A DNA stretch of 64,000 nt from NCBI GenBank assembly GCA_964562525.1, contig CAZLTL010000006.1:31187-95186 (forward strand), in the 5' to 3' direction. This document shows positions 6,493 to 51,400 of this stretch, one piece after another; positions within the stretch are counted from its first letter, which is position 1, and the number at the start of each line of letters is the position of its first letter. The notes under the pieces are model-generated. The model did not search any database and was not told the DNA's origin. It saw only the letters and a program-made list of their open reading frames with translations. The position numbers and the translations under genes are program-made. The stretch is from an uncultured bacterium. GTDB lineage: Bacteria > Omnitrophota > Omnitrophia > Omnitrophales > Aquincolibacteriaceae.

Positions 6493-6531
6493 ACGGCTGA
6501 GCGTGCTTCTGGTTTCTGACGTAATTGAAAA

Positions 6532-12237: not shown

Positions 12238-12434
12238 ACTGTTCCTTACTATTCTCAGACCTGTGATCTAGGATCTGAGCCTTCAATGCTATGATTTGCT
12301 ATAAATGCTAGCTGTTGCTATGCACAATGAATAAAAAGTCATTAAAGATAGCTGTAAATATTGTAATTATTTAATCTTCTAGGTAGCTTTCTATAGGAAG
12401 AACAGACTTTCTAATATGAAAAAAAACTAAATTC

Positions 12435-14013
12435 ATGAATAGAGTCCCGAGAATTTACAAGCTAATCGCAGTGTTTACCGCACTTTGCTTAGAGTGCACG
12501 TCCATCTCCATTCCCACTTTGCATGCTCAAACAGTTCCGCAAAATATTCTTTCTGTAAAAAAACTGAATCCTGAGATTCTTAAATTACCGGAAAAGTTTG
12601 GTGAGGTGGTGGAAAGCCATGCGGGAAATGGAAATGTGATTGTGGTGCAGGACGCGCACGCAATTCCGGATGCGCAGAAGAATATCGCGAATGTGATCAA
12701 GTATATGCAGCAAGAGTATGGCGTGGGAACCGTTGCACTTGAAGGTGCGAGCGGCGATCTCGATCCGCAAATCTTCCGCAGTTTTCCTGATAAGAAGCTG
12801 CTGCGAGAAGTGATGAACGGGTACATGAATTCGGGTGAAATCGCGGGCGGTACGGCTGCTGCGATTTTCGACGAAACCACAACGAAGTATGTCGGGGTAG
12901 AAGATTGGGATGTTTATGAAGAAGGTTTGGGGCTTTATCTCTCCGCGATGGATAAGACCGCAGCCATTGAAGCTCAGCTATCTGCTTTGCGTGAAAAGTT
13001 AAACAAGGAAAAAGAAGCGATTTATCCGCGGGCGTTACTTGAAGTTGATCACGAGATCGAAAAGTTTTATGAAAATGCCGCGCAGCTAACGGAACTGATT
13101 AAAGTGTTGGGAGCGATTCAAGCCCCTAAGGCAGGCAGTGAACTTGAAGCGGTGTGGAAGGAAGTTTCGAAAGCCCACAGTCCGGCGACCGGAGGCGAGA
13201 GAAAGGACATAGAGGTTCGTGCTTTAGCAGCGAAGGTCGAAAAGGTGTTAAAGAGCCCAGGGGCGGTGAAAGCGTTTAACAGCCGTAAACAAGAATGGAT
13301 GACAGGTCAGATCAGCGCAGAAGCCTTTGCACTCAATTTGAAAGAGTTTGCTGATCAAAGCGGACTTAATCTTGAGATGTCCTCCGATTTGCTCGGAATG
13401 GTACGAGACCAGCAAACGTTAAAGGGGCTTGAAGGAACCAAGCTGTTTCGGGACTTAGAGATTTATATCCGTGAAGTGAAGATGCAGTTAACGCAAAGAC
13501 AACAGACGGATGTTTCGGTTAGCGGTGTGAATGCTGAGATGTCAGCGATTCGGGCGTTGGATGAACGGACGAATTCACTGCGTGTATTAACGAAGCTATC
13601 AAAACTTGAGTTGTCCCGCCAAGAGTGGACGAATTTATCGGGGAATTTGGTGTTTGAGGCCTTTGCGGCATTGGGATTAAAACAAGAAGACTTTCTGTTC
13701 CACCTCGCTTTTTATCTGAATGCTGAAGAACGCGACCAAATCTTTTTCGATAATCTCAAAGCTTCGGTCACCGGCCTCCGGCCTTCCGTGATTGTGGCCG
13801 GTGGTTTTCACGCGGAAGGAATCACGAGCCGCCTCAAAGAGGCGGGAATGGGCTATGCGCTTGTGATGCCGAAGATCAATCACATTCCTGAAAATAACTC
13901 GTACAAAGCGCAGATGCGCGGGGAAGTGTCGTGGAAAGATTATTTTGAAGTTGAGAACGGTCGCATCCATCTTTACAAGGCGTTTGTGCGCGCAACGCGC
14001 GACAAGCTTGTCG
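12435..14013 (+). other. ORF A head module: signal peptide plus split TraB/TIKI/ChaN-like domain
   Basis: The signal-like N-terminus is [11 protein letters not shown]...[41 protein letters not shown] and [12 protein letters not shown] resemble the GTxH...VE and GxGHxxG motifs of TraB/GumN/TIKI-fold proteins. The same motifs occur in ORFs B and C. Confidence 0.5.
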
Positions 14014-17000
14014 CAGACCGGAGACCGGAGGTCGGAGGGCAGAGTGACTCAGAGCTCCGGACCCCGGACTTAGGCCTATTAAAAGCTTGGCGCGATCAAA
14101 TCATCCGTGATTTATCGGATATGGGGAAGGTGAATCGCGCGGCCTGGTACACACGGTTTATGGATGAAGTGGTGGACGAAAGCCTGAAGCACACCGATGC
14201 CGACAAGCTGATGATCAAAGTCGACAATTTTATCCGCGGTTTGCGCGGACTTGAGAAGAACAATCAAATTGATCAGGCAAATATAGCGGATTTACTCAAG
14301 GCAAGTATGGCGTCACCTGCTGTTACTTCCCCAGCTGTTGTCGGTACCCCGCTGTCGTTTCCGGTTAATCCCGCAAGTGAAGTTACCATGCAAGAAGCAT
14401 GGGCTAGCGTCCGGGAGTCTCTTCCTGTCGCCATAATTAATGCTTCTCCAGCAGATAATACGCAGTTGCAAGAGCAGGTGACGACGATTCAGGCAAATGA
14501 GCCAATTAATTACAGTGGACTCTCAGCTGAGTTTGATGCAGCAGCTATTAAGCAAACGGCCTTACTTAGCAATTTGGTTCGGCGGGTCTCAAGTATTACC
14601 GATGCAGATTTGGAGTATGAGTGGAATGAAATGGGACGACTTCTTCGTTTGGTGAACGGGATGAAAGGAGAGCCCGACCCGCGAGATCCGGAAGCAATTT
14701 TTGGTTCTGAAGAGCGCAATTTTAAACTACCGGTTGCAATGCGTTCCAAAATTGTGCGCAGTTTGAGTGAGCGAATTCAGTTTAAGTTGGCATGGACGCA
14801 TGCTGTAAATACATTTTTGAACGATGCTGAAGGTGTATCCAAGTTGGCAAGCCGGGCTGCCCCTGCATTAAGAGAGAGTAATGATGAGGGCGCGGCTGTT
14901 GAATTTGAAGTTTTGTCTCCTGGACAATTAACGGACGAAGAATTCTACCGTACTCTTTTGGGCGACAACGGAACCGTGAGCAATGGGTTGATTGGTTCGG
15001 GAAATTTAGTAGCAGCTTTTCGACTTGTTACTCAGAAAATGGCCGTCATGATCAAGGCCGGACCCGAAGGAGTTCCCGGTGGATCAAGAGAGCTAATCAA
15101 GCGCGTTCATGCCTTAGATGGAGTCGCTAAAATGATCCGCGATGAAATTACAACAATGCAGCGCTCCGAAGCGCGGGTTAATGAAAATGCGCCGACAGAT
15201 CAGGCGGCACGGGAGGAAGCGCTTGCAACTGATGAGAAGCTGAAAAGGCTTGATGTCACGACTTTCTTTAAAGAGATCCTTAAATCGGAATGGAAGTGGT
15301 TGTTGGTTGGTTTTGTTTTATTAATTTTGAGCACCATGCTCTACGACTTAGTCGCTGTTACTACGGTCGCGCAATTTTTTTTAAAATCTCTGGGGGTGGG
15401 TGTTGGTTTCTCTTGGGGTGCGATTTTGCTGTTCAATCCTTTGACAGTGCTTACCCATGAATTAGGGCATTTTCTAACCTACCGATTAGTTGGCGGTAAA
15501 TCCGATAACACGTTTGGTTTTAATAGGCACTCCTACTTTTTCAATGCAGATGACATATATAAACTCCCCATATGGAAAGTTCGGATTGTGGATATGGGTG
15601 GGCTTGTGATCAACACAGCTATTTTTGCCACAATTGGTCTTATTTCGTATCTTACTTTGGGCGCGACCCCTGTTCTTATTGCTCTCGCTGGACTTCAACT
15701 TGCTGAATTTATAATGGCTTCCGGTGATTATGAGAAATTCTTCAATGCCAGAGGGTATCAGGCTTTGAGCCTTGATATTGCAAAGTTTCAGGAAGAGATC
15801 AAAAATTACAAACCTGAATTTCATGCAGATGGCACGCGAATATCGGCTGAAGCTGATCGCCCTTTGGATGAGCAAACTCAACGCGAAGCACGGGTGGATA
15901 AAACAGAAGAGGCTTTGAGAAGTGGGGCGTTAACAGTTGAAGGGAAAACGGCGGTTTTTGGCCCTCAGGCGAATAAAGATTTTGCGATAGGAGTAAGCCC
16001 GGAAGTTTCATTTGTGGATTTAGATAAAGCCGATTTTGTAACGAAAGCAGAAACATTTCTCTTTCAATCGCTTTTCTTTGCGGCGGCTTTTTTAAAAATC
16101 CCTGTTGGGAAAGAGCAGAAATTAAATACTTACAAGGAAGTATTTGAAGCGCTTCAAAATGCCAAAGCCGCGGTCAAAAATGCCGGTGGCTTAAGCTTGT
16201 ATGCTGCCCAAGAAAAATTAAAAGAAGCCCAAGCTGAAAAAGATGAGTTTGTGGCTGAAGCTCAAAAGAGAGGTTTTGCCGAGTTTTTGCTTCCGGGTGG
16301 AATTCTAAGCCGCCGCATGGAGATTTTTGTTCCCAATGAAAATCAGCGCGAACGGCTTTTAAAGTATTTAACCTTAACTTTTGTAGGGCAAAGTAAGGAA
16401 TCGCTGCTCTCAGACATTCTGAAAGTGCAGCAAAAATTAGGAGTCACTTTTGATCCGGCGGTTCTTGAGCAGCTTTTAGCCGAGTTTGAATCAAAGCGCA
16501 GCTTCATGTTTCCCGGGGGAGTTTTTGCCGGGAAAATGGATGCAGAGATTCAAGATATTTTTGGTCAATTTATTCAGGTGAAAGTTTTAAGTCAAACCCA
16601 AAGTGTTTCAAGCCCCTCAGTTGGAAATATTCAGCTCAATCTTTCAGGTGCGTTGGTTATGGGGGCAGGCCAATCTGAAGTCGCTGTGGATTGGGATCAA
16701 GTTTTACAGTCAGGAGAATTGGCTCCGGCATGGTCTGAAGCTTTTACTGCACAGCTCAAGAAGGCGCTCATCTTTAAAGATGGGAAACTGCGTGTGTTTA
16801 ATCTCGGGACAGGCGACCCCACCCCGTTTAGCCAGAATCAAGATTACACACATATGGCATTTATTGTGAATGGGAAAATGATTGTTACCGATCCGTCCAT
16901 TCGCAGTATTCGTAATCTTGAGCGTTTGGGATTTTTGGAAAAAGTTGAGGCAATTCATCTGACCCATGTTCACTTTGACCATGTAGGTGGCATTTTAGAT

Positions 17001-20000
17001 ATAGCGCGCCGTAAACTCAAAAAATCGGAATCCTTGCCTAAGCTTAAGCTGGTTATGCCGACTGTTGTTGCGCTGCAACTCGAAAGAACTCTTGCTTATA
17101 ACTTTTCCACGATGGCTGATGATTCAAATTATGATTTCAGCCAGCTTGCGCTGGTCAGCGAACTTTTCGATTATCGGGGACCTGAGAAAATCAATAAAAC
17201 GATAGAAATTTCCCAATTACAAGAATCTGCAGAGTTTAAAGGTGTTCAAATTGAACTTGCACCAACGTTTGGACACCCGATTCCAACCTACGGAGTCAAA
17301 TTGATTACTCAAGAGGGTTTGAAGATAGCCTATTTGTCCGATTCAGTGATGCCAACCCCAACGATTAAAGCAGCGGATGGAAAGGCAATCCCTAATCCTC
17401 GATATTCGGAGTTTGTAAGTTACTATGCGGATTCAGATATATTGATTGCTGAAAATGGCGTGCCGGGCGTGCATATTACTCCCGAGCAGCTTGCCGAGGC
17501 TTTCCCTGAGCATATTAATAACGGAACTCTGTTTACTGTTCATTCGTCGGGTCCCCAAGCTCAAAAAGGGTTAATTCGATTTATGCCGGGCATGATCTTG
17601 TCTCCGCTTCAATCGAATCAAAGAAAGCAAGATGTTCAGCAAAGTGCAGCGACGCTCATTGAGAATGAAGCTATTCGAGATTTTTTAAAGTTAAATTTAG
17701 AGTTAGCCCAAGAACTTTCGAGTATGGGAACGAAGGTTTCATTTTCTGAGGGGGAAGTTCTTTTTCAGCAAGGCAACCCGGTTTATGACTTTGATCATGT
17801 TTATATTTCTTTATCCGGCGAAACAATCGTTGAGGGGCCCGGTGCAAAGCGGCTTCCTTCGATTGGAGCTGGGAGATTAATCGGTGAAATGGCGCTTTTG
17901 ACTAAGGCTTTGACGCAAGAACAATATGACCAGATCATGGTAGCCATCGGGAAGGGTAAGGATACGGCAGCGCTCGATTTTTTTGGGAGAGTGACTTACG
18001 ATTTGGTAATCGAAGGGCAGCCTCCTTATCGCATTGTGAATCCAAGTTTTGACTTAGAAATAGAAGCGAAGGAATTGACGGAGGATCAAAAATCAAAGTT
18101 AAAGCCTGTCTTTGATATTGCAAAGTCAGGTAAACCCATTCCGCGATCGGTAACGGTTCGGGCAGGTGCGGGAGCAACTTATTTAGCGATTCCCAAAGAT
18201 GCTTTTTTACAGTTTTTAACACGAATTGATGCGTCAAAAATCGATTCGAGTCGACAAGCATTCATTTCAGCTATTTACGCACAAATTGGCATCAATCTTG
18301 ATTCTCGAAAAAAGATGAGTGAGTTAGCCACTCCCACTCAGAACGAAACAGATGTGGTAAAGGCATCAGCTGATACGTCAGTTCGCTCCGAAGCGCGCGC
18401 GGATGTTGAATGGTTTAACTGGCGCGTGGACAAACAAGGCAATCCAGTTTCGAATGCCGGGCCTATGAGCGAGCTTGTCACTTTGAATGTTGGTGACAGT
18501 ATCTACTTTGAGGTTCCAAAAAATAAGCCGGGTTTGATCGACTATTACTACCAAGTCGGAATGGAGGGCGAGAATTTTACTTTTCAGCGCTATGAACAAA
18601 GCGGGTCTGTTGCTCAACCTGCTGGTAAGAAAATCGAAATTCCCCGATCACTGCAAACGGATAAGGCCGCTAAAAACAGTGATAACTATCTATTTAGTTT
18701 TCAAGTTAATAATGGAAAACTAATGGTGAGTTCAGGCCAGAAATATGGCTTGCTAAAAAGTAAGGTTAAAAAAGACGGAGCGATTGGTGATAGTAAACCG
18801 AGCGTGCGACGAAAAAAATTTGACGATGCCGCTCGGTCTTATCGTGAAGCATTATCAAAAACAGATTTCCCCAGGTTGAGAAGTTTGTCAGCTGAATTAG
18901 ATGAAAAAATGGACGAAATTTTGGGGGTGGCTACGAATGGTTTATTTCTAATACCGCTTGGTTGGCTTGAAGGACGAATCAAAGAAATGGATGCGGGGTT
19001 GCGTCGAATTGAGAGACATGAGTTATCGGGTCAGGGTAAAGAAGCTTTGGGCTGGGCGATGCAGGTGCTGACGGAACAAATCAATCATTTTCGAAATTCT
19101 GTTGTTGCTGTTAATTTAGAACTCAATCTTTTGACCCAAGGAGAGAAAATTAATTACGATGTTTTTAGTGAGTTGATAGAGAGCTTTCTTCAAACCAACA
19201 GCTTATTTGCATTATCTCAAGAGTTGAATGTTCGCATGCAGTCCTACCCTGAGACAATTGAGTTCAGTTTAAAAAATGTCGATGCCGATTCAAAGATTTC
19301 TGCGCTTAAAAGGCGAATTTTCGATTATGGGCAAGCAACGGCTACTTTGACGCGTCTTGAAGACGCTCGAATATTTTTTGAGAACAGCTGGAAATTGTAT
19401 GATGATCTTGTTGGGTTGATTCAGCAAATGGCATTAGAAATTCAAAGACGTGATGAAACCGAAATGACGATTGAAAGAGGTGCTGAGGCAGCAAAAGAAC
19501 AGCGCAATCAGCTTTGGCGGAGTATTGATTATTATGAAGTGCTAGGTGTTTCTCGAGATGCTTCTCTAGGGGACATAAAAAATGCTTATCGCAGTTTAGT
19601 TCGCGCGGGTAATCATCCGGATAAGGTCGCAGGCGACTCTGCTACGCTAAAAGCAGCTGAAGAGAGATTTAAAGAAATAGGACCGGCATATGAGGTCTTA
19701 AGTAATGAAGTAGACCGCGCTGAATATGACAAAATTCATTTTGCCCGTTCCGAAGCTCGTTCGGTAGACTCAGGGCAAGCGCGGGACTCGTATGAGCGCT
19801 ACAAGCTTTTATCAGGGACTTTGGCAGATTTACCTGACCCTGTATTTGTCAACGATGGGGAAACGATTACTTTGCGGATTCCGCATGATGAAGTCGAAGG
19901 TAGTCAGCCCGAGCTTGATCTTTTGGTTGTATTCAAAAAATTTAATGGGAAGGTGTTTTTTGCCCACCTAGATTCATTTTCAGACTTATCAATGCTTGAT

Positions 20001-23000
20001 GAATATTACCGTTCTGCTGATCCTCTTCAGGAAGGTTCTCGAATCAAATGGGAAGAGGTGAACGAGACTTCAGAAGTTGAGATTATAGGTCGTGAGGAGG
20101 AAATGGATAGTGAGGGTACCAAGGTCAAGATTGTTTTTAGTGAACAGGGTTTTACGATTGCCAATGCCTCGATCTCGGATGTTTATTATTTTGAGGGTAA
20201 GCCCGGTCCGGAAATTATTGCTTCCGCTCTTCGGGATAGTTATCTTTCAAGTGCGAGCACAGGTTTGCCCATAGCCACCGAGCCAATTTTTATTGCCGGG
20301 GAGGATGCAACTGAAATTTTTAACTTGGTCACTGAGTTTATTAATCAGGGTCCGTATGTTCCTGCTGCAGGCGAAACCGCTCTCTACACAAAGGTGAAAC
20401 AACAAATTAGGTTGATTACCGAAAGAACCGGCGAAAAGTATCGATTCAACCCGATGATTCAAATAAATGCCTTAAGTGATACTTATAGAGCTTTAAACAA
20501 TTTTCTCATGAATCGATTTACTGACCTGGAAGGCTTGGAAAAAGGTGTGGTCATTCTCAAGCGAATTCCTAATCTTGAGAAGCTGATCGAAGTTTTAAGA
20601 CATTTAATATCAGCTTACGAGCTGGCTTTTAATCACCTTGAGAATTCAACTATTGAGATCGAGGTGGATGAAAAAGAAAACCATCGGCGTCATGCCTTGC
20701 AAATGCTGGTTGAGTTAAAAAAGATTGTTAATTCATATGATTCAATTCCTCCTGCCGAACGACCGCGGGCTGAAATCCAAGGAGAAGTTCGAATGGCAAG
20801 GTTGCCCAGCCAAAAAAACTTTTCCGAGTTCATTTCTTACAATGGCGATAAAATTCCACTTTGGGCAATTAAAAGAATTTATCTGCCGGATAATAGGGTT
20901 ATTCAATTTGGTGAGATTTCTCAGGCTAATAACGAGGATGGTGTGTATGATCGGGAGGATCGCACGAGAGACGTTAGGAATGCCTTGTCACCATTTCCAG
21001 AGAGTGCGGAGATCGTTTTTGAGCTGCAAGATGGCGTTTTATTAAAGCGAATTTTGGAAGCGGAAGAGTATGAGACGATAACGGCAGTCTATCCGGTTGA
21101 TTTTGACCCCAAAGAATTTAGCAGGCTTCCGCACGGAATAGATTTACCGGAGCGGCGGTTTATAAATGCAGTTAACGTGAACGGGTTTATTACCACCCTT
21201 TATGAGTTGGAATCTCTTTTGCCTGAGACTGGGTTAGCCGGCAGGACAGTGACTTTTTTCTATTCCGCGAATAACCATCTTCAAGCCTTCAAAATCAGTG
21301 ATGAAGCTAAACCTCAGTCTGAGCAATATGTTTACTCTCAGTTTCGAAATTCAAGCAATGTTCAGCCTATGTCCGCGCCTTTTTCTGCTCAGGAAACTCA
21401 AGAAATTGCAAAAAAGGATTTGGTTGACCTATTTGCGGATCTCTTTAATCGCCGTGCGTTGACCTCCGCGCAGAGGGTGGTTCCGTTGAGCGCGCTTATT
21501 CTTCAATTTTTGGCTGTCTCGCTTAACGCTAAGGCTGTTTCAGATTGGGCTCAGGAAGGCAAAGTTCCGCTGTTTGAAGTTGAGTTGGCGAACGAACAAA
21601 CCATTTCATTCAGCGGGCTTAATCCTGCTTTACATCACGATGATGCCGTGCGGATTGAAAGACTGCTATCTCAGATTGACGGGGGATTGGATGCCGCTTC
21701 TTTTCGAATTGTTTTGGCGCCTGCTGGACCGGCTACCCAGTCGAATCAAGCGGGGCAATTTTTTGATCGACCCGGGCGTGGTTTGGATGAGTTCAATGCC
21801 TGGCATAAGTTATCTGATGTCTTGGAACTGTTTTTTCTGTCAGTGGGCGAAACTGGCAAAGACAAGAAATTGGATGCTGCGTCAAAACAAAAACTTTTAG
21901 ATAAACTCGCCGTGCTTGTTGAGGCGATAGCCATGATTCATCCTTCAGTAACAGGAAGTGAAATTTATCATACTTTATATGCTGTCATGGATGCTTCAAT
22001 GTTTAGGGCTAAAAAACTAGATACAGGCAGCAGAATCAATGTTTTGATTAATTTGGCGCGCCAAATCAGAGCCGCTGCGCCTCAAGATCCTCAACAGAGC
22101 ATTTATGTGCAAGGTGAGTTTGAATCAAAATTAAAGACCCCAAACTTAGATCTAAATGAATTGGCAAAAGAGACTGCCCGCTCCGAAGCCCGTTCGGCAG
22201 ACTCAGGGCAAGCGCGGGAGGCTGAGGCGGTTGCGGGAGATGTGTTTGGCTTTTTTAAATCGCCCGCGGATTATTCTGCAGACCAGATAAATACTTTGGC
22301 AGATGAAATTGATACATTGGCTGATAAACAAGGGCTTGATGTTTTTGTGAATCTCTTGCGATCGATAGCTCGAGACTTAGCTGTCGTTAGTGTTCAGGGG
22401 AGCGAAAATATTTTAAGCAAAGAAGCGACAAGTTTTGCCGTGAAACTTTTTGTTGGACGCATGATGGCAGCAAAGCGGCAGTCGACTTTAATAGATGTAA
22501 AAATCGAGAAGCCAACCATTGCTTTAGCATTAAAATTGAATGATGCCCAAAAAGCTTCTCTGGGAGATAAGTTGTCCAGCGAATTGGCTGAAATTCTGGG
22601 TGCGGTTCAGATTGAGGCCAAAGATTTTAAAGAATTAGGTGCGTTTTTTAAGAGCGTAGGGGTTTTAGTGACAACGATTGATCCCGATCTAGCAAACGCA
22701 GTTGTATTAGAAAGTTTTGGTGCGGATTGGAGTGGTTTACCTGCCGTGGGTGTCTTAGAAGAATCGCAGCAATTTGATTCGGAGTTAGAAGGGATGCGTA
22801 TTTATTTGCAGCTTTTGATCGCGGCTTATTTAGCTCGGAGCTTTCCGGATAAGAAAGTAATTTTGACACCCGAGATTGTTGGCGAGATTAATAAGCTGCT
22901 GTTTCAATCTGATGCAGGGCAAGAAGGAATTGTGCAGATACAAAATGGTCAGTTAGTTGTTAAACGAAGCAGTCTGCTGGCATATATTCAAACCTTATTC

Positions 23001-23033
23001 GCGGCGCAATCTGCCGTTGCAGTCGCCGCGTAA
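12435..23033 (+). CDS. Giant modular protein A (3,532 aa): signal peptide, head module, multi-enzyme cargo, tail module
   Basis: Uninterrupted 10.6-kb ORF. Recognisable in-frame motifs occur along its whole length (see the domain sub-features). Its N- and C-terminal modules are paralogous to the ORFs at 41847 and 45438. Confidence 0.85.
13179..13199 (+). repeat. In-frame heptamer triplet AGTCCGG CGACCGG AGGCGAG (encodes SPATGGE)
   Basis: Three 7-nt units (21 nt) inside the ORF A head module. Confidence 0.55.
14015..14070 (+). repeat. In-frame heptamer repeat with inverted arm (AGACCGG AGACCGG AGGTCGG ... CCGGACC CCGGACT)
   Basis: Direct reading of the sequence. The arms match as reverse complements at 11 of 14 positions. 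It encodes [18 protein letters not shown] at the end of the head module. Confidence 0.75.
15291..15755 (+). other. ORF A cargo: M50/S2P-like intramembrane metalloprotease-like module
   Basis: Several hydrophobic helices. HELGH (15456-15470) lies within a predicted TM segment ([18 protein letters not shown]), as in site-2 protease/M50 families. A downstream MASGDYEKF may supply the acidic ligand. Confidence 0.55.
16786..17560 (+). other. ORF A cargo: metallo-beta-lactamase-fold hydrolase domain
   Basis: The HxHxDH signature [10 protein letters not shown] is at 16965-16982. Downstream are His/Asp positions (TFGHP, YLSDS, TVHSS). Confidence 0.75.
17650..18230 (+). other. ORF A cargo: cyclic-nucleotide-binding (CAP_ED-like) domain with a large internal insertion
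   Basis: [30 protein letters not shown]...[12 protein letters not shown], then about 75 aa, then [26 protein letters not shown]. Confidence 0.65.
19527..19742 (+). other. ORF A cargo: J-domain (DnaJ N-terminal domain)
   Basis: [34 protein letters not shown]...[23 protein letters not shown], with the HPD tripeptide at 19614-19622. Confidence 0.85.
22179..23030 (+). other. ORF A tail module (shared with ORFs B and C)
   Basis: It starts at the last RSEAR motif and ends ...[38 protein letters not shown]. Compare B ...EDGIEKAGKNWRITKPSLSRLKDIWQRFQAALQVMQSA* and C ...EQEGVGRYKLTNNSLVLYLETILADIEALLATAQSA*. Confidence 0.6.
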
Positions 23034-23073
23034 TCTTTTCCTTATCAGCACCACAAGTCCCGGGTTGGTTTTG

Positions 23074-23108
23074 GTCGTTGGTCTCTAGTCGTTAGTCTTT
23101 AGTCTGTG
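23074..23108. repeat. Intergenic heptamer tandem array (GTCGTTG GTCTCTA GTCGTTA GTCTTTA GTCTGTG) between ORF A and ftsW
   Basis: Five 7-nt units. The reverse-complement units (TAACGAC, CAACGAC) are the same unit seen in frame at 42670 and 46658. Confidence 0.75.
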
Positions 23109-23122
23109 GTATTATCTGCTCC

Positions 23123-24229
23123 ATGTCACGCGAAGGCCGTCTTCTTTTTTGGGCTTCTTTTATCCTTGTCGGATTTGGTTTGGTCATGGTTTATAGCTCC
23201 AGCGCCGTTGTTGCTGCTGAGCAATACAAACATGCTTCCTATTATCTGACACGCCAGGCTTTATTTGCCGGTTTGGGAGTAATGGCTTTCTTTCTCGTTG
23301 CCTCCATTCCGCTGAGTTTTTATAAAGATCACGCGCGCACAATTATGTTTTGCGCCATCGGACTGACTTTGCTTGTCTTCGTTCCTGGTTTGGGCCGTTC
23401 AGCGGGTGGTGCGCGCCGCTGGATTACTTTGGGCGGATTTAATATTCAGCCCGCTGAGTTTGTAAAGCTGGCTGCTTGTATTTATTTAGCCAACTACTTA
23501 TCCCGAAAAGTAACCGTCGTTCAAAAGGGAACTTTAAGTGTTTATATTCCACCCGCAATTTTGATCGGATTGGTGTGCCTCTTGGTTTTGGTTCAGCCCG
23601 ACTTGGGTTCTTTCGCTTTTCTTGTGATTTTGACCAGTTTGGCATTTTTCGTGACTGGTCTTCCGGTCCGCTTCGTTGCTATTGCTTTGGGTGTTTTGAT
23701 TCCTGCGTTTTATTTCCTGATTGTGCGTGTGCCTTATCGTATGAAGCGCCTCGAAGCCTATCTTAATCCTTGGGATGATCCGCAAGGCAAAGGTTTCCAG
23801 ATTATTCAGTCTTTGCTTTCTTTTGCTTTGGGCGGAACCACCGGTGCGGGGCTTGGGCAGGGAACTCAGAAACTTTATTATCTGCCGTCAGGGCACAATG
23901 ACTTTATCTTTGCTGTAATCGGCGAAGAGTTGGGGCTTTTCGGGACTTGTTTTGTTTTGGCCGCTTTTTTGGTGATTTTTTACGCCGTCGTGAAGATCGC
24001 TTCCCGGCGTCAGCAGATTTTTGAAAAACTTCTCGTTTTGCTTTTAGGCTATTACCTCGTTATTCAAGCGATGATTCATATGATGGTGTGCACCGGTTTA
24101 GTCCCTACAAAAGGCTTGCCGCTTCCTTTCATTAGTTATGGTGGCAGTGCTTTAATTGCGAATATGGTGGCGGTGGGGTTGATTATTGCGTGTGACAGAC
24201 ATACCCGAGTCGAATGGAAACCGCAATAA
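23123..24229 (+). CDS. ftsW: SEDS-family lipid II flippase/peptidoglycan glycosyltransferase
   Basis: Polytopic membrane protein with the FtsW/RodA signature (...GLVPTKGLPLPFISYGGSA). Located in the dcw cluster upstream of murG. Confidence 0.92.
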   Translation: MSREGRLLFWASFILVGFGLVMVYSSSAVVAAEQYKHASYYLTRQALFAGLGVMAFFLVASIPLSFYKDHARTIMFCAIGLTLLVFVPGLGRSAGGARRWITLGGFNIQPAEFVKLAACIYLANYLSRKVTVVQKGTLSVYIPPAILIGLVCLLVLVQPDLGSFAFLVILTSLAFFVTGLPVRFVAIALGVLIPAFYFLIVRVPYRMKRLEAYLNPWDDPQGKGFQIIQSLLSFALGGTTGAGLGQGTQKLYYLPSGHNDFIFAVIGEELGLFGTCFVLAAFLVIFYAVVKIASRRQQIFEKLLVLLLGYYLVIQAMIHMMVCTGLVPTKGLPLPFISYGGSALIANMVAVGLIIACDRHTRVEWKPQ

Positions 24230-30645: not shown

Positions 30646-30667
30646 AGTCTACTTTTTTGGAGCTTTC

Positions 30668-41846: not shown

Positions 41847-44800
41847 ATGAGATCAGTTAAGCACAAAAGTAAACGGTGGGTAGCGCTTGGAGCGTGTATT
41901 TGCTTTGTTGCCACGCTCTTTCCCGACGCTCATGCCGCGCTGCCTTCGATTGACATGGCGGTTAAGGCCGAAACTCCTCGTGTTCTTAATATTGACATTC
42001 CCACTGAATTAGCCACAGTCGATGAGTGGTATCAGGCTCCTTCAAAATCCAAGCCGAAACTGATTGTGCATATTCAGGATGCTCACGCGAATTATGAAGC
42101 TCAAACCAAGATTCGTGATGTGATTAAGTATCTCAATACGAATTACGGTTTTAAAACAATTCTCGTTGAAGGCGCGGCAAGTGAGCTGGACCCGAATATT
42201 CTTAAGCTTTTTCCGGATCAAGACCGCAATTTAAAACTTGTCGACGAGCTTGCCAAAATCGGTGAGGTCACCGGCGCGGAAATGTTTTTGGTTGAAAACA
42301 GTGATGCCGCAAAAGGGATGGGGATTGAGAAGCCGGAGCTTTATCGCAAGAATTTTGACGCGCTTCAAAAAGTTTATTCCGAAGATGAGTTTGTCAGCGG
42401 ATTTTTCGAAGCTTATGAAAAAAAATTAGGACAAATTTCATCGCGAAGTTTTGGCCCGCGCATGATCCAAGCTTTGGCCGAATGGCGTAAATTTGAGAGC
42501 GGGCATCGTGATTTTTTACCATTTGTATCTAAGCTGGCGGAGCTTTCCAAGAAAGTTTTAGAGATGGATCTCGGTGTTCTTTACTCGCAGATTGAGTGGC
42601 CGCAATTAACACGTTTGTTGGTTCTGCAGCGTGTTGAAAAAGAATTAGAGCAGACTCATGACAGACGACCAACGACTGACGTCGAAGAAGGTGCTCAGCG
42701 TTCAGCCCTTAGTGTCAAACAACAAGCGGAACTGGAAAAACAGAACATCATCGATTTGATGAAAGTTGCTCAGTCGCCGGAAGGATTGATTCGAGGACTG
42801 GAGAACTTTAATGAGAAATCAGCTAATCTCAACCGCATTGGATCTTCCGAAGTTCGCCAGGCAAGTGCGCCGCGCGCTTTGATGGAGGCGTTGGTGGAAG
42901 AGGGTGCTAAGTTCGGTTTGAACATTCGCGATTATCCTGCTTTTGCCAAATACGCTGGCTATTTGATTCTTCGCGGCGAAATTGTGCCCGCAGAGTTATT
43001 TGAAGAAATTAAAAAGCTATTTGACCTCATTCTTGAATCTCTCGTGAAAGAAGCACCTTCTGCAGCAATGGAGTCAACGGATGATTTAGCCGCTCGCAAA
43101 CGTCTGCTTTTACTGCATCGTGATGAAATGCTGGCGCGCAAACTCCTTAAGCTTGAATTAACCCACGACGAGTGGCTGGCGGTGCTGAATAGACAAGATC
43201 GCTTTTATCCTGATGATTTGAATCGCCGTATGCTTGAACAACTGGGACAAAATACCCGAGTTAAAGAAACCGGCGGGGAAGAAGCCTCGCAAATGAAAAA
43301 ACTCAATGAAGCCTTTCGTGCCGCATTCACTTTCTATTCCGCTGCGGTGAATCGTGACACTTTCTTCTTTCAGCGTACGCAAGAAGTTTTAGCGCAAACC
43401 GACAAAGCCATTTTGATTACCGGAGGTTTTCACGCGGAGGGAATGAAGTATTTCTTTAGAAAATATGACATCAATTACGGAACTCTCACTCCACGCATTA
43501 CCCAAGAGTTCACCAACGAACAATACCGTAAGGTGATGATGACCGGCGTCGAGAAAAACAAAGCGGAGATTACGCAGCAGCTACAGGAAGGATCTTCAGC
43601 GGTGGAGGAGAGCGACACTCCAAAGTCTAAAAAAGCTGCGAAAGAAAACTATCTTGGTGCGGAAAGTCTTATTGATCCTCTAAGTGATGGTTTAGTTGGT
43701 GGGACAAGATCTGAAGTGCGGAGAAATATAGTTCAAATGTTAGCGGTTTCATTGGGCTTACCGAAAATTCAACAAGAAACCTCTTTAGCTGCGCCCGCGC
43801 AGGTGGCCGTTTCACGTCAGCCGAGATCGATCGCAGTACGATTCGAAAGTGTTTCTGCTCCTCAGGGCTTTTTATCTGTCCTAGAGGGGCAGCGAGCTTT
43901 AATTGGTGCGGGTATTGGGATTTTTGGTCTGGTTGCAGCGTATTTAGCCGCGTTATCCTCTCCAATTTTGTTGATTCTGGCGATTCCTTTTACTGCCAGT
44001 GGAATGATTTATGGATTCGATCAATATTTTAAAGCGCAATATTTGATTTCGAATGCCACCAAAGCCGGAAGTGTTGAATTAACCGATAGGCTTGCTACTT
44101 CTAGTCAAACAGAGGTTCCAGTTGTTGTGCAGCGAACGGAGGTTGCGCAAGTGGATGCGGAGCCGCTCACTTTCACTTCTGTTTTAACAGAGTTGGAAGT
44201 TGAAAGAGCGAAGTCTGAGCCAGATGCAGCGCGTTTGGCTGATTTGGTTGCCCAGTTGGTTGATTTAGCCGGTGACATTGAAGAGGCTAAACAAGCTCAG
44301 AATGTACTACGAGATTTAAGAGTTAAATACAAGAATCAGTTGAATCCGTCGCAATCAACCAACCTGATCATGAAAGTAGCACAACTCGCTGTGAAGTTGA
44401 ATCAATTCCAACAAGCTCAAAAATTATATGAGAGGGAGGAGATTGTTGTAACAGCGAAAGCTCCGCGCGAAGCTATTTTTGCAGCTCTTTCTCCGGAGGA
44501 CAGAGGGATTTTAAAGAGGATGGCGTTTGATGATTTAGAGAATCAAATTATTGACGCAAAAGACTTGTCCGCATCGCAAGCTGTGGCTATTTTGATTACT
44601 TACGGATTTATTTCCGATAAGGACCGCAATGCCGCCAAAAACTTAGCGATATTGGCTTCACTGGCTGTCACCAAGATTGCGCCTCAAAGGGTTTCGGAAT
44701 TGGCGGAAATGGTACGAGCCTTTTTCCCGGAAATGGTCTCATCGGACTTGGGTTATTTAGGCCGAATTATTGATGCGAATGGCATCGGAAACAAGTTAGA

Positions 44801-45272
44801 TACGATGCGGATGCAAGCTGTTTTAAATCCAAAAATGGAATTTGAAGTTGTTGTGTTTGGAGAGCGCGGCCCGATGGTTGAAGATAAGGCTCTTTCTAAT
44901 TTGCGTATTCGTTATGCCAAAGATTTTAATTCAGCTGCTAGTTTAGTTACCAGCAAAGGCGCTATGGAGAAATTTAAAATAGGCACCAAAGTATTGATGG
45001 TTGTGCCGGAAGGTAAAGATTTTAGAAAACTAGCTTCTCAGCTCAACTTGCAAATTGTTCAGGAAGAAAATAACCATGAGAAAAATTTAGAGGCGAGTGT
45101 TGCTATGGTTGTTGGAGCTCAGAATCTTGCCAGAAATGTTGAGGCATCCGTTGATGAGGACGGTATTGAAAAAGCAGGCAAGAACTGGCGCATTACAAAG
45201 CCCTCTTTATCAAGGCTAAAGGATATTTGGCAAAGGTTTCAAGCTGCTTTGCAGGTTATGCAATCAGCGTAA
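41847..45272 (+). CDS. Modular protein B (1,141 aa): head module, RSEVR, TM hairpin, tail module (cargo-less family member)
   Basis: Signal peptide (...FPDAHA/ALP). The head aligns closely with ORF C (HIQDAHANYEAQTKIRDVIKYLNTNYGFKTILVEGA; EWRKFESGHRDFLPFV; LLVLQRVEKEL; AILITGGFHAEGM). The tail ends ...ALQVMQSA*. Confidence 0.85.
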   Translation: MRSVKHKSKRWVALGACICFVATLFPDAHAALPSIDMAVKAETPRVLNIDIPTELATVDEWYQAPSKSKPKLIVHIQDAHANYEAQTKIRDVIKYLNTNYGFKTILVEGAASELDPNILKLFPDQDRNLKLVDELAKIGEVTGAEMFLVENSDAAKGMGIEKPELYRKNFDALQKVYSEDEFVSGFFEAYEKKLGQISSRSFGPRMIQALAEWRKFESGHRDFLPFVSKLAELSKKVLEMDLGVLYSQIEWPQLTRLLVLQRVEKELEQTHDRRPTTDVEEGAQRSALSVKQQAELEKQNIIDLMKVAQSPEGLIRGLENFNEKSANLNRIGSSEVRQASAPRALMEALVEEGAKFGLNIRDYPAFAKYAGYLILRGEIVPAELFEEIKKLFDLILESLVKEAPSAAMESTDDLAARKRLLLLHRDEMLARKLLKLELTHDEWLAVLNRQDRFYPDDLNRRMLEQLGQNTRVKETGGEEASQMKKLNEAFRAAFTFYSAAVNRDTFFFQRTQEVLAQTDKAILITGGFHAEGMKYFFRKYDINYGTLTPRITQEFTNEQYRKVMMTGVEKNKAEITQQLQEGSSAVEESDTPKSKKAAKENYLGAESLIDPLSDGLVGGTRSEVRRNIVQMLAVSLGLPKIQQETSLAAPAQVAVSRQPRSIAVRFESVSAPQGFLSVLEGQRALIGAGIGIFGLVAAYLAALSSPILLILAIPFTASGMIYGFDQYFKAQYLISNATKAGSVELTDRLATSSQTEVPVVVQRTEVAQVDAEPLTFTSVLTELEVERAKSEPDAARLADLVAQLVDLAGDIEEAKQAQNVLRDLRVKYKNQLNPSQSTNLIMKVAQLAVKLNQFQQAQKLYEREEIVVTAKAPREAIFAALSPEDRGILKRMAFDDLENQIIDAKDLSASQAVAILITYGFISDKDRNAAKNLAILASLAVTKIAPQRVSELAEMVRAFFPEMVSSDLGYLGRIIDANGIGNKLDTMRMQAVLNPKMEFEVVVFGERGPMVEDKALSNLRIRYAKDFNSAASLVTSKGAMEKFKIGTKVLMVVPEGKDFRKLASQLNLQIVQEENNHEKNLEASVAMVVGAQNLARNVEASVDEDGIEKAGKNWRITKPSLSRLKDIWQRFQAALQVMQSA
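42663..42718 (+). repeat. In-frame heptamer triplet AGACGAC CAACGAC TGACGTC plus an imperfect inverted arm
   Basis: Directly follows the codons for LLVLQRVEKEL(EQTH). Encodes DRRPTTDVEEGAQRSALSV. Confidence 0.65.
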
Positions 45273-45437: not shown

Positions 45438-48400
45438 ATGCGTAACTCGTCCTGGCTTAAATTCACCGCTGGTGTATTTACGTTTCTTTTCGTTTTAAAC
45501 GACATTGGGCAAGCTGCGCCTGCGCTTGACTTTGCGGCGTCGTTGCGTTCAGAAATTCCGCGCGTATCCCATATTGAAATTCCACCTGAAATGGCAACTC
45601 TGGAAGATTGGTATGAATCGCCGAACGTAGGAGATACGCGGCTTATGCTTCACATTCAAGATGCTCACGCTCAGCCTGAAGCGCAAGCACGAATCCGTGA
45701 TCTCATCCACTATTTAAATAAACAGTATGGTTTTAAAACAGTTTTTGTTGAAGGTGCAGCGGAACAACTTGATGTGAAGTGGCTGCATCCATTTAAAAAT
45801 TCTGAACAAAACAAAAAGTGGATTGAAGAAAAAACATCTTCAGGCGAAATGTCGGGCGTTGATTTGGCATTGCTTGATGGCGTTGCCGGGCTCAAGGCTT
45901 TGCCAATTGAAACAATTGAAGGCTATCGGGATGGTTATCAAAAACTGCACGCGGTTTATACCGCTGAACCAGAGGTGAACGAGTTTATTAATTTTTTTGA
46001 CTCCAAGCTCGATTCAGCGGCATCCAAGATTTTGAATGAAAAAACAAGACGTATTCTTTCTGAGTGGAAAAAGTTTGAGTCTGGACATCGTGATTTTCTG
46101 CCTTTTGTTGAAAAATTAGCCGCGCTTGCGAAAGAGGATCTCAAGCTTGATTTAGACGCTCTCTACTCCCAAATCGAATGGCCACAACTGAGTCGGCTAC
46201 TTGTTCTTCAGCGAGTTGAGAAAGAACTCGCTGAAGCGGTGCCGACAGGGCAAAGGTCAAAAGTCAAAGGTCAAAGCCATAACTCAAAGCCGGTTAGCTG
46301 GAGAGAACAAGCGCTCGATGAAAAGGAAATAGTTCTCAATTTGCTAAAAGACGAACAAGCTAGCTCGGGATTGATCCATGGTCTCGAGCGGTTTGACGAG
46401 AAACATCTCAACTTAAACCGTATTACTGTCGGCGATGGAAGGCAATTTTCGAGCCCGCGCGCTTTAGTTGAGCAGTTAGTTGAAGAAACTCGCAAATTTG
46501 AGATTGATTTGCGAGATTATCTCGCTTTTTTGAAATACGCCGGATATTTGATTTTACGCGGCGAACTTCAGCCTTCTTTGCTTTTCAAGGAAATAGAGCG
46601 CCTTTTTGAGAAATTCCTCGAGAAGACTAACGACCCTTCGGCTGAGCTCAGGGCAAGCCAACGACTAACGACTAACGCCGGAGAAGATGTTCAGCGTGAA
46701 GCGCAGAGCGTTAAGCTGATCGAGATCTACCGCGATTCATTTCTTTTAAAAAAGTTGCTTAATCTTGAGCTTTCTCGCGAGGAGTGGCGAAAAGCGCTTG
46801 CGAAGCGGGAGGAGCTTGAACCGCAAAAGATTTTAGGGAGACTAAAGAATCTTGGAGCCGCGGTCCACGGTCCACGAGCCACGGCAAACGAAAAAAAGAT
46901 CACGAATCTTGAACCTCGAACTACGGAAAATCAGGACGTGGAGCGCACGTTTGAGAATGCCTTTGATTTTTATGATGCCGCGTTAGCGCGTGAAGATATT
47001 TTCTTTGAGAAAATTAGTTCGTCTTTGGCTCAAAACGATAAAGCGATTTTGATAACGGGCGGTTTTCATAGCGAAGGAATGAATGCGTTTTTTCGTGAAA
47101 AAGAAATTTCTTACGGAACCTTAACGCCGCGTATTACCAATCTTGCGCCCACTTCTTTGTACCGCAGCGCGATGATGCAAGCGACAAATTTGTCTAAAGT
47201 TTCGTCTCAGCCCACCCCAGCCTTGGCACAGCCGCTCGAGACTATTGCCGCCATGACTGCTTTGAGCGTGGTTGCAGTTCGTTCTGAAAGCCGACTTCAG
47301 ACTGAAGCTGCCGATTTTGTTCAATGGGTTGAGGATTTGAAATTAGTTCGGGATCCAAATAATGCCGCTGAAATCGAAACTGTTTTGCTTCGCCATCGAG
47401 ATCTTTTTAAGCATAGACCCGATGAATTTCCTGAAGAGTCGGTTAGCTTTCGCGGAAGAAATTTGCAGAAGATTCCTTCTCGTTTGATTCATCAGCTTGA
47501 TCTTACTTGGCTTAATGGCCGAAATTCTGATGCCAAACCGATTACAAGAAATGACTTGTTTCAGTTGGTATTTGACCGGCCTTTGGATGAAAACGAAGCT
47601 AAGGGGTTTGCCGGGTATGACAACATACAAAGTTTGCGTGATTTGTTCTATTTTTTGATTACTAAAGAGCATGGCAGAAGTTTGCAGCTTTTTGCAGAGC
47701 AGTATTTTGCTTTGGACTCCGGACAACGAGAGCTTTTTTTGGAGCAAGCATTTGATATTCATCAAATTACTCAGTATTTGATGGGGCAGATGGCTCGTAA
47801 CGATGATTATGAAGTTTCTGATGAGATTTTAACGGCTTACGCGAAAGCATGGCCAATTGTCATTCAATTTGGAGAGGCAGAGCTTCAATCGGGCGGGATA
47901 TTAAAGCGGTTAAAGACCGTTCCGGATTTGCCGGTTGACATCGATTTGCGCTCAAATCAGGATTCGGGGCAAGAAGTAATTTTAGAAGATTGGGAGCGAG
48001 CCCTTTTGCTGCTTGAGAACTATGTTGAGATCGGAGATGAGTCGATTGATACTCAAATCGGAGTGGTTTCATTGGGATTAAGGAGTTTGGCGGGGGATCA
48101 GGCAACGGAGGTTCGCTGGTCTCGTGCATCATCACTGGAACGGGCTGTGGCAGTTCGTCTGGAAGGAACTTTGCCTCTATCTCGCGAGGAAGCGAATCGA
48201 TATTTGCGATGGCTTGAAGTTGCGGATAGCGATTTGAATGGATTGGATCAAGCCAAACTTTTTGAGCCGAATCGTCTGGTCTTGATCGGCAAAATTGCCA
48301 GTTTGCGTGAACAGATAGTTGCTCGTCAGCTGCAGTCTGAATCTCGAGAGGATGAGCGTGATAGGGGAATGGCTCGATCAGAATTACGTACCGTTGAAAT

Positions 48401-51400
48401 TGACGGAGTCACTGCGAACTGGGAAATTGTGGAAAACCTGCTGCTGGGAGACCCCGGAAAATTTGATGCGGCATTCGAGTTTGAAAAAGACGAAGAGGTT
48501 TACTTAAAAATAAAACCCGCCAACTTCAAACAGCAGCAAGATTTGACTGAAGCGGGTTTTGAGTCTGAAAATCCGAATTGGGTTAAGAGTTTAGTGGATG
48601 ATGCGCAGCTGCTTACTTATGTGGTTGGAGCTCAGCCCAAGATCCGTGCTTATCTTGTCCAAGATAAATCAAGAAATACGACCGGCTTAAATCAAATCGA
48701 GTTTGATGCGGGCGGAGTTGTTCGGCCGAAGGGTGATAAGGGTATTTCTGCAAGCCGGTTGAATGAAGCTGGCCAACTAATTACTTTTATACCGCAGGTT
48801 TTTGTTTTAACGAAAGCCGGAGTTTTGCCCGGCAGATTTAAAACTTTATCAGAAAAAGATGAAATAGAACGTGTTGCGGCTGAAAGATTGGCTGCTGAGC
48901 AAGAAAATCTGCGGGCAGTTCAGCGTTCAACTGCCGCATTAAAAGAAATTCAAGACCGCATGAGTGCGCTCGCGGCATCGATGGAAAGTGAGTCTGCGTG
49001 GTCTTTTGTTCCTCAAAGCATTCCTAATATTGATCGTGAGGAAATTGCGGATAGCGATGACCTTAAGTTGATTCGAGCGCGCAGTCAGATGATTTCTGAA
49101 GATTTGAATTCTTTACGAATAGCTTGGCAGCAGGCGACGGATACACAAAAGAAATGGGACAGGCTGCTCCGAGATTGGGCTTCTGCTTACGATAAAATCA
49201 ACAAAGAAAGCAGTAAGCTTGCCGGCTTAAATTTTCAATCGATTGCGGTGAATCTGCAAAGCCGCCGTGAGGCATTGAATAAAATAGAAACGTATCTTGA
49301 AAGTTTGGTCAGAATAATGGGCTCGTTTCAAGCCAAAAAAGCTGAATTTGAAAGCAAATTACAGGCTGAGAAAGAAAGAAAAAGAGCGGAAATAGAGCGA
49401 GTTCGGTTCGAATCTTCTCAGAGGCGTGGTGCTTTTTGGGATAGGGTTAACCGTTGGGGGCCGTTTGGTTTGATCGCTTTTGCTGCAATGGCTCTGATTT
49501 GGTTTTTGGGGATACGCGAAAAAACTGTCGCACCTGAAGTTCGTTTGTCGCAACCGGAAATGATGGATTATTCTTTACAGGGCTTGCCCCAAGGGATTTT
49601 GGACGCAATGCAGCGAAATCGGCAGAATTTGAAATGGACCCCGCAAGAGGTTCTTTTACAGCTGCAGACTCTTATATCAAAGCATGTCACAGATGAGCTG
49701 GATTTGGGGCCAATGACAATTGCTGGTTTTCCAAAAGATTTCGATCAGCTTGAAGTTGTAAACCCGCCCAAGGATGCTTACTCGATTGTTATTCCGGGAG
49801 TGCAATTTTACCAAGCCGAGTTCATTCCGAAGCTGAATAACAAACCGATTAAGCAATTTCAGCAAATGGTTGTTTCAGTAGAAACAGTTCGCGGTGCGAA
49901 AGTATTTTATGCACAAGATACGATTGTGCAGGTGGGCGAATGGCTGCTTTCTTTAGCGGGCGATTCGATTTCTTCAGCGGAGAGTTTGCGGATGGGTGCC
50001 TACATTGCCCAGGAGTTTGCCGGCACCACCTTTGGTTTAGAGCAAATTGATCATTGGCTTGCGAAAAACGGTGCCTCGCAGGCTCCGAGTCCATTGCTGC
50101 GAGGGCAAGTCGATTTGCCGGTAACGTATTTTATCGCTAAAGAACTTGAGGGATTGCTGTCATCAGACTCTCCGTTTGTTGAGCCGTTTCGGGAGCTGGA
50201 GAAGCAATTAAACGGAGGGCAGGGGAATGTTTCCGCTTCCGGTAAGATTTTGACAGCACTCATAATCAGCGTTTACGCAGACTCTAAGCTCTATCTTGAA
50301 AAAATTAGCGTGGATGAGCAAAAGAAAATATTTGATGCATTATCAAGAGAGCTTGTCCCGCTGGTAAATCAGAATGGCGTTGGCGTTGAGGTTGCGGCGC
50401 TTGAGCGCCTGCGCGGTTCGATCACTTTTCGAATGGCGTCGCAAACTCAAATGCTTTCGGCAGGTTTAAGAAATGGTTCAATTACCTCCGAACAAGCAGT
50501 CTTGCTGTGGAATCAGCTGATGGGGTTGGAGGAGGAAAACATTTTAGCGATTGTTGGATATTTAAATCAGAAAAATATTCCTCAGGCCGCCAAGCTTTCT
50601 GGGTTTGTCAAAAGTTACTTTGAGAATGCCCGTGCTCTTAGCCAAGACCCTGATGGGGTAAGGTATATTCGCGAGCAAGTTGAATTAAGAATGAGAATGG
50701 GAACAGAGCTACTGCACAAATCTGAGCAGACAAAACCGGCCGGTCGTTCTGAAATGCGGGAGTTTGGTGAGCTGGTTGAACGTGTTATTTCGCACACTCA
50801 TTCGGATGGTGCGAACAAAGATCAACGGAAAAACCTTGTTGATTTTTTTAGGATGATGTCGCGAGGATATCAGCAAGAGTTTCTTGCGGAGCTTCAGCAT
50901 CAAGCGCAAGGACAGCCTGCAAGGAAAAAAATAAAAATTGTTTTAAGTCATGAAAATCCTGACCCCGACGCGATCATTAGCGTGATCGGCGAAGCATACG
51001 CTCAGTGGGCGGCATTAAGCGATCAAGAAAAAGATAAAACCTTGGTGATGCCTTTGCTTTACGGCGAGGTTCCGGCAAACACCTTGTATTTGATTCAAAT
51101 GCTGGAACGTCTGCTTAAGAATGATACGGTTCCGGATGAACAGGAATATGGCGGAATGCTCATGCTTCGTGGTCCACCTGCAATTTCTGGAAAGACGGCT
51201 CCCGGAACGATTCTAGATTTATTACTTATAATTAGCACTAACGCTTCTCAGCAGGACTTATTTCAGCCGTCCGGAGCGATAGAGCTAACCTTGATCGATT
51301 TTAACCCTTCTATTGCTCCAAAAGATTTGGATCCTCTTATGCCTGCGATTGTCCGAACCCTGGATCATCACATCCAAAATGTTGAAAAAGCACCGAATAT

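Follow-up and report, generated by a model that had tools for sequence, protein, structure and literature searches.

A giant gene of an uncultured Omnitrophota bacterium, open reading frame (ORF) A, carries two direct repeats of 42 nucleotides (nt) that are junctions between modules of the encoded protein, and the 2.4-kb cassette enclosed by them was most probably swapped recently between two lineages through crossovers within these repeats, an explanation to which a probability of about 0.75 is given. ORF A lies in the division and cell wall (dcw) gene cluster of a 64,000-nt stretch of contig CAZLTL010000006.1 (the window, whose positions are used throughout), a piece of bacterial chromosome with 45.7% guanine plus cytosine. 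It belongs to a family of modular Omnitrophota giants, composed of an exported head with a predicted TIKI fold, variable modules of about 300 amino acids (aa) and a conserved tail, in which a short motif, RSExR (x being a variable residue), marks the junctions.

The sequence-only reading of this DNA had described two near-identical 42-nt segments (19746-19787 and 22179-22220), which are found with exactly the sequence and coordinates claimed, and a shared exact 21-mer, AGACTCAGGGCAAGCGCGGGA, which is borne out: it has only two matches in the window, even when three mismatches are allowed, and none of 100 shuffles contained a match. Repeat finding in ORF A aligns the copies over 45 nt (19742-19786 and 22175-22219, 42 of the 45 identical) with a period of 2433 nt; no other direct repeat in the gene comes near this length. 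Both copies are in frame and encode 13 residues each. As had been proposed, copy 1 follows the J-domain, beginning six residues past its Pfam match, and copy 2 opens a C-terminal tail of about 284 aa that is homologous to the tails of other proteins; the intervening block, described as free of recognisable domains, gives no Pfam match even at E ≤ 0.1. What had been overlooked is that RSEAR occurs four times in ORF A (aa 910, 1984, 2438 and 3249; nucleotide positions in Table 1) and RSExR 14 times in ORF A and its paralogs, ORFs B and C. The 42-nt segments are two of these module junctions, which share an eight-residue extension, SxDSGQAR. This extension (SxDSGQA followed by R or Q) was detected in the two block-carrying genomes alone, twice in each, and is missing from every other junction examined; in comparison with three homologs (L003, P0004 and L002b), it is inserted after RSEAR and ahead of where the module starts. 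The extended junction is rare, since no match was obtained when metagenomes were scanned for RSEARSxDSGQA with a degenerate DNA pattern. The small dyad noted in both copies (CCGAA-N5-TTCGG) is indeed present, but it is probably incidental, being set by the codons for S-E-A-R-S. A function of the dyad as a site was rejected on these grounds and because it is imperfect in the related locus L082, where it ends in TTCGA and the last base is not kept. An RNA-level role of the repeat was also rejected, because the codons differ between the copies and Rfam gave no RNA family anywhere in the window.

An exhaustive search of representative sequences returned only six relatives of aa 2420-3532, including ORF A itself and a 3501-aa protein (P0002) encoded on L082, a 36.6-kb Logan contig with the same order of genes as the window (murF-mraY-murD-giant gene-ftsW). 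Nucleotide comparison of the two loci (blastn) gives 86.0% and 86.5% identity in the flanking dcw genes, 76% in murD and the head, almost no match in the middle of the giant gene, and 98.3% without gaps over exactly 19746-22219. A mismatch map places 32 mismatches in 19767-22196 (98.7% identity) and, outside this tract, five in the outer 21 nt of copy 1 and five in the outer 24 nt of copy 2. Each end of the exchanged tract lies inside one of the repeats and at an equivalent point in it, between RSEARS and xDSGQAR, and the length of the tract (2430 nt) is close to the repeat period (2433 nt). By the Nei-Gojobori method, synonymous divergence (dS) is 0.031 in the block, with a nonsynonymous divergence (dN) of 0.013 and a dN/dS of about 0.4, versus a dS of 0.66-0.94 in murG, ftsA, mraY, murB and murD. 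Between the two proteins, identity is about 97-98% in the block and about 37% in the tail past copy 2, and the module before copy 1 is the J-domain module in the window and a different, unrelated one in L082. The history of the block differs from that of its surroundings, and its borders lie in the repeats. The proposal of the sequence-only reading that the block had been moved by recombination is therefore supported by the contrast in dS and by the tract ends. The same reading had considered that homologs might show the extended motif only once, or that synonymous sites might be saturated; the motif is present twice in L082, the sole syntenic relative with the block, and the dS of the block is far from saturation.

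It is inferred with high confidence that homologous recombination through the junction-coding DNA moved the cassette. The 2.4-kb block would be one module cassette, which passed recently between lineages with about 86% identity in their housekeeping genes; both crossovers would have occurred within the 42-nt junction repeats, the DNA of the junctions serving as a recombination handle. Two routes account for the data equally well: a circle of 2433 nt with a single copy of the junction could have integrated in the Campbell manner, or a double crossover could have taken place, limited to the sole sequence that the two genes would share there. In the window the 3' 21 nt of the repeat are the same in both copies, and in L082 the 5' 18-20 nt are; such half-repeat identity between the copies of each genome is the trace expected of a crossover resolved within that stretch.

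RSExR at module borders

In the window, RSExR occurs in frame 14 times, solely in ORFs A (four), B (one) and C (nine) and in no other real gene, for a composition-based expectation of about 0.01-0.02 RSE[AS]R per ORF. A metagenome scan with an alignment of the heads yielded 80 loci (L083-L162), the head-bearing ORFs of which comprise 189,325 residues and contain 198 RSExR versus 4.7 expected (about 40-fold). The residue at x is V in 64, L in 55, M in 29, A in 17, T in 15, I in 10, S in six, Q in one and N in one of these motifs, so that 196 of the 198 have one of the first seven. The remaining ORFs of the same loci hold 34 RSExR in 139,382 residues, mostly in other very large ORFs. The first motif usually stands just past the head, and the median spacing between motifs is 305 aa. 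Upstream of ftsW, the giant ORF of L003 has ten RSExR, one of them right after its J-domain, exactly as in ORF A, and the ORFs of L002 have three. In this family of giant proteins, RSExR is a junction motif of high specificity and strong enrichment. A full-text search of the literature found no relevant paper on it; neither of two preprints on Omnitrophota giant proteins mentions it, the second also being without matches for cleavage, motif or recombination, and this junction code of a widespread family has apparently not been described so far.

The motif coincides with the boundaries of homology blocks and, therefore, marks module junctions. In an all-against-all BLASTP comparison of 65 members, 48% of the alignments outside the head start within -5 to +25 aa of an RSExR, versus 5% for random positions. 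In the tail, the homologies of ORF A with P0004 and L002b start at RSE[AS]R, its homology with P0002 over aa 1168-1988 stops at RSEAR, and the J-module and the first domain of the block are found in reversed order in L003 as compared with ORF A, each bounded by RSExR. Small residues are enriched at positions -3 to +1 around the motif, while positions +2 to +9 are acidic with few hydrophobic residues, so that the flanks look like linkers. Longer repeats at junctions were seen in two other loci: in L160 a repeat of about 75 nt (RAEV.PKSDDFGTS.NL.TGRSEVR) is present at two junctions 7.3 kb apart (4930-5015 and 12223-12308), and L100 contains three tandem 60-nt RSEMR units (6366-6500). Junction flanks are, on average, no more alike within a gene than between genes, and the 42-nt similarity of the pair in ORF A is thus exceptional rather than the rule.

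All kinds of arginine and serine codons occur at RSExR, which indicates that the peptide is what is conserved, and the RSEAR core is no recombination scar but a junction motif of the whole family, maintained mainly as a peptide. Against a purely peptide-level explanation stands the codon usage: in the head-bearing ORFs of L083-L162 the motif is skewed to CGY-TCC-GAR-NNN-CGG as compared with the same genes, with CGY at the first arginine in 80% (40% in the background), TCC at the serine in 54% (19%) and CGG at the last arginine in 42% (20%). An account in terms of the peptide alone is therefore too simple, and some process at the DNA level, which could be descent, gene conversion or a nucleotide signal, also acts on the motif. 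The residue at x is also more uniform within genes than between them (0.387 versus 0.209; 0 of 2000 shuffles), which suggests shared descent or gene conversion among junctions, added to selection on the peptide.

Two Logan contigs, which are independent short-read contigs (k = 31) from other runs, end at junctions of ORF A: L163, 100% identical to the window, stops at 15175 inside the codons of the first RSEAR, and L001, 98.8% identical, begins at 22190 inside copy 2. About 1.5% of the giant-ORF sequence lies at motifs and, therefore, two of four contig ends at motifs are unlikely by chance; that the assembly graph branches there into variant continuations of different strains is only suggested by this. 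Further mosaics were seen among the metagenomic genes (L083/L084, L110/L134 and L122/L125), which are too few to generalise on breakpoints. In the first pair, L083 9998-11880 and L084 93-1975 share a head that is 97.9% identical over 1883 nt and is followed by complete divergence, the breakpoint being the end of the head and not an RSExR.

Other explanations of the shared block

The repeat pair could reflect constraint on the peptide alone, both segments encoding the same functional linker or recognition peptide without any recombination or mobility. The conservation of the RSExR core in spite of varying codons, and its recurrence at many junctions that have no flanking similarity in common, agree with this. 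The two copies, however, share 42 of 45 nt with synonymous positions included, the extension is found at no other junction examined, and neither the low dS of the block nor an identity tract that ends in the repeats is accounted for, so that constraint on the peptide alone is largely refuted by the blastn, dS and breakpoint data and has very little probability left. Hardly more credit can be given to vertical inheritance of a slow-evolving orthologous block, with junctions homogenised by gene conversion within each genome. Some concerted evolution is in keeping with the greater uniformity of x within genes and with the identity of one repeat half between the copies of each genome, but a dS 20- to 30-fold below that of adjacent essential genes is beyond what purifying selection can produce, the dN/dS of the block points to no unusual constraint, and the module right upstream is completely different in the two genomes. 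The least probable of all is a site-specific mobile cassette, integron- or IS-like, with the repeats as attachment sites, the dyad as their core and a dedicated recombinase. Direct repeats with a small dyad do flank a discrete block, and the tract has nearly the length of the repeat period; yet the element is an in-frame part of a protein, no integrase or transposase was found in the block (Pfam) or among the neighbouring dcw genes, and the dyad is only 5 bp long, has a sequence fixed by the S-E-A-R-S codons and is not kept intact in L082, features that also separate the block from an integron cassette.

An artefact of assembly is unlikely, if less so than the explanations above. An assembler might have switched between co-occurring strains at junction k-mers shared by them, in which case no real recombinant genome would exist: both sequences are metagenomic, L082 is a single k = 31 contig from one sample, and the breaks of Logan contigs at RSEAR sites imply that the assembly graph branches there. 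On the other hand, the two copies in L082 share about 20 nt of exact identity, too little to be merged at k = 31, and the L082 ORF is intact and in frame over its 3501 aa. The join of copy 2, tail and ftsW in the window is confirmed by an independent sample (L001), and the block is 98.7%, not 100%, identical, which means that the window strain itself was not its source. Such a switch would, moreover, need the same extended junction in the other strain, which would itself imply shared handles.

Several observations weigh against a recent exchange of the cassette through the junction repeats, even though it is the preferred explanation. L082 is the only relative that carries the block, so the exchange rests on one pair of sequences, both of them metagenome assemblies and one a k = 31 contig, for which a chimera produced by strain switching at shared junction k-mers keeps a small residual probability. 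No empty site or deletion variant lacking the block was found, and no other cargo between the same extended repeats, two kinds of variant that the sequence-only reading had suggested looking for. Finally, two further contig ends lie inside ORF C and are not at motifs.

Head domain and possible processing

The N-terminal head, which has about 600 aa, includes a signal peptide and is common to ORFs A, B and C (whose C-terminal tail, also shared, ends in small residues plus Ala), is predicted to have a TIKI/TraB/ChaN/Ere fold with conserved His and Glu residues. In an alignment of 52 heads, A74, G104, Y161, G456 and G457 are invariant, in addition to the residues listed in Table 1. An AlphaFold model made with 24 sequences (predicted local distance difference test, 85; predicted template modelling score, 0.74) shows an alpha/beta fold whose core, a parallel beta-sheet in a beta-alpha-beta arrangement, is split by a helical insertion of about 290 residues. 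This superfamily includes RRSP of the MARTX toxins, a sequence-specific endopeptidase (PMC6254334). At the sequence level, the heads keep a pattern D-x-H...E...E...GG-x-H, in which the invariant H75, E103, E156 and H459 may correspond to the 2His/2Glu catalytic set of the superfamily; the His-Glu spacing of 28 (H75-E103) is that of Bcr135 (H85/E113) and RRSP (H3902/E3930) (PMC6254334). Unlike that superfamily, they have the long helical insertion and no Pfam membership at threshold: ChaN/Tiki (PF04187) is matched weakly by three of the 52 heads (best E 1e-3, below cut-off), so that membership in a curated family is not assigned, and sequence-profile searches of the PDB with the full head and with its core only gave no match.

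Judging from its sequence context, the RSExR core may be kept because it is recognised in the protein, most simply by a protease that would separate the modules, an interpretation of moderate confidence. The linker-like context, the protein-sized spacing and the signal-peptide-like or transmembrane segments that follow some motifs fit such processing, although the stronger claim that RSExR is a cleavage site from which modules are released stays a little short of an even chance. In ORF C, for instance, a twin-arginine-like signal or transmembrane segment, SRRTAIFGGLMALSS, comes immediately after the RSESR at aa 2295 (aa 2295-2328, 52320-52420), and a new exported protein seems to start there. 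It is doubtful, but conceivable, that RSE-phi-R is a processing code by which a widespread class of Omnitrophota polyproteins would be cut at each RSExR, possibly by their own TIKI-fold peptidase, with the junction DNA doubling as a handle for swapping. The protein-sized modules released in this way could be effectors, for example, the J-domain or a cyclic-nucleotide hydrolase. The TIKI-like head is one candidate for the protease, and an unlikely one. Topology argues against a head that cuts every junction in cis, because the head is predicted to be exported and the J-domain, cyclic-nucleotide-binding and metallo-beta-lactamase modules look cytoplasmic; the membrane would separate them unless the protein is delivered as a whole to some other place, which is a weak point of that proposal. 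A second candidate protease in cis is the membrane-embedded HExxH segment of ORF A, which weakly resembles YydH/LiaK and the M50-type metalloproteases of peptide maturation.

Two observations concern other parts of these proteins. The C-termini of ORFs A, B and C and of complete relatives (e.g., L085, L095 and L111) nearly all end in [A/S]-A, and several complete members of the family terminate in RSExR-I-x-x-[A/S]-A, which recalls an ssrA-like or secretion tag. In ORF A, the metallo-beta-lactamase-fold domain, which has a weak match to Apyc1 (anti-Pycsar; PF23023, E 2.5e-4, below cut-off), adjoins the cyclic-nucleotide-binding domain (aa 1471-1827, 16845-17915), and this pair may be a cyclic-nucleotide-degrading effector module.

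Genomic setting and related systems

The features of the three giant genes are collected in Table 1. ORFs B and C are adjacent, head-bearing paralogs of ORF A (41847-59639) with heads that are 42.6% identical, so that at least three members of the family are present within 64 kb. FtsW has 98% identity to its counterpart in Candidatus Omnitrophica UBA2337 (L003), its other close matches are from Omnitrophota, and the head homologs are named Ca. Omnitrophota. A giant gene is located between murD and ftsW in the window (10984-24229) and in L082 (2528-15679), and upstream of ftsW in L003 and L002. In more distant Omnitrophota (L004-L010) murD directly abuts ftsW, which makes the giant gene a lineage-specific insertion. 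Farther along the window (29401-33684), a 205-aa MlaC-like ORF and an MMPL transporter lie after ftsA, and ftsZ is absent from its usual place there. Exact look-ups of ORFs A and B returned no record, and the clusters at 90% identity were all singletons, in which length variants are not visible. A scan of genome contigs with the block and tail gave no relatives, and protein homology searches with aa 2360-3532 or the tail alignment gave no match, the word index being apparently swamped and only the head query productive.

Table 1. Positions of ORFs A, B and C and of the parts of ORF A in the window
Feature	Position	Strand	Remarks
ORF A	12435..23033	+	3532-aa modular giant protein, between murD and ftsW in dcw cluster
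Head of ORF A	12435..14366	+	Signal peptide (aa 1-32) and predicted TIKI/TraB/ChaN/Ere-fold domain; invariant H75, E103, E156, R433, GG-x-H459
RSEAR junction 1 of ORF A	15162..15176	+	aa 910; contig L163 ends inside
Membrane HExxH metalloprotease-like segment	15300..15674	+	ORF A aa 956-1080; YydH/LiaK-like, NF058609 E 1.2e-5, below cut-off
Metallo-beta-lactamase-fold domain of ORF A	16845..17366	+	Weakly Apyc1-like
Cyclic-nucleotide-binding domain of ORF A	17736..17915	+	
RSEAR junction 2 of ORF A	18384..18398	+	aa 1984; homology with P0002 ends; following module homologous to the one after RSEMR in L003
J (DnaJ) domain of ORF A	19527..19730	+	aa 2365-2432, Pfam E 2e-17; closes module 3
Repeat copy 1 (junction 3)	19746..19787	+	RSEAR + SVDSGQAR; first 21 nt host backbone, exchanged tract from 19767
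Cassette block	19788..22178	+	About 797-811 aa, no known domain; 98.7% nt identical to L082, dS 0.03
Repeat copy 2 (junction 4)	22179..22220	+	RSEAR + SADSGQAR; exchanged tract ends at about 22196; contig L001 starts at 22190
Conserved C-terminal tail module of ORF A	22221..23033	+	Ends in AVAVAA
ORF B	41847..45272	+	1141-aa paralog, head and tail, one RSEVR at 43707-43721
ORF C	45438..59639	+	4733-aa paralog with head; nine RSExR at nt 47280, 48375, 50745, 52320, 53457, 55119, 56256, 56787, 58089

In MARTX toxins, modules differ between strains by in-frame recombination, including gain and loss of whole modules, and autoprocessing releases them (PMC4468845). The giants described here are alike in the way they work, though not by membership, being very large single polypeptides with conserved ends and a central mosaic of effector modules that are swapped in frame. 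Unlike MARTX, ORFs A and C have no RTX or hemolysin-type Pfam match and no GGxGxD nonapeptide cores; no match to the cysteine protease domain (Peptidase C80) was found in Pfam or NCBIfam, nor were type I secretion genes, and the strict RSExR junction pentapeptide, the TIKI-fold N-terminal domain and the phylum set the family apart. In CdiA (VENN) and Rhs (PxxxxDPxGL) proteins, a short conserved peptide and its DNA border a variable module and are the site of swaps between strains. The RSExR giants share with these polymorphic toxins a short conserved border at which recombination acts, but they show no VENN, PxxxxDPxGL, FHA or Rhs features and no immunity gene, the gene downstream being ftsW, and they have many junctions per protein, internal variable modules and a conserved C-terminal tail. 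With viral and other polyproteins they have in common a short strict motif, flanked on both sides by small residues, between protein-sized units; unlike viral polyproteins, they are encoded on a cellular chromosome, and their cleavage at RSExR is hypothetical.

Other giant proteins of the phylum, of the Archaeovorin and Dockerin types, are probably cleaved at points that are not known, a lack that blocks their analysis according to the main study (bioRxiv 10.1101/2023.11.21.568195). The RSExR family resembles them in its very long multi-domain ORFs, but its members are smaller (3532, 1141 and 4733 aa here and 1-5 kaa in the family, not more than 30 kaa), no dockerin, C39 peptidase or SecA-like domains were found in them, and they are characterised by the TIKI-fold head, the RSExR junctions and a tail ending in [AS]-A. 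If true, processing at RSExR would supply the cleavage points that were missing from earlier work on giant genes of Omnitrophota. A five-residue junction motif is, in any case, a concrete and testable way to split giants for structure prediction, proteomics and biochemistry, and in assembly practice the junctions are spots where assemblies of giant genes break or could become chimeric. For the biology of these organisms, the exchange of the cassette would show a route of diversification in which about 20-40 nt of homology at the junctions allow entire modules to pass in frame from one lineage to another, resembling the module swapping of MARTX and polymorphic toxins, yet in an uncultured and probably host-dependent phylum.

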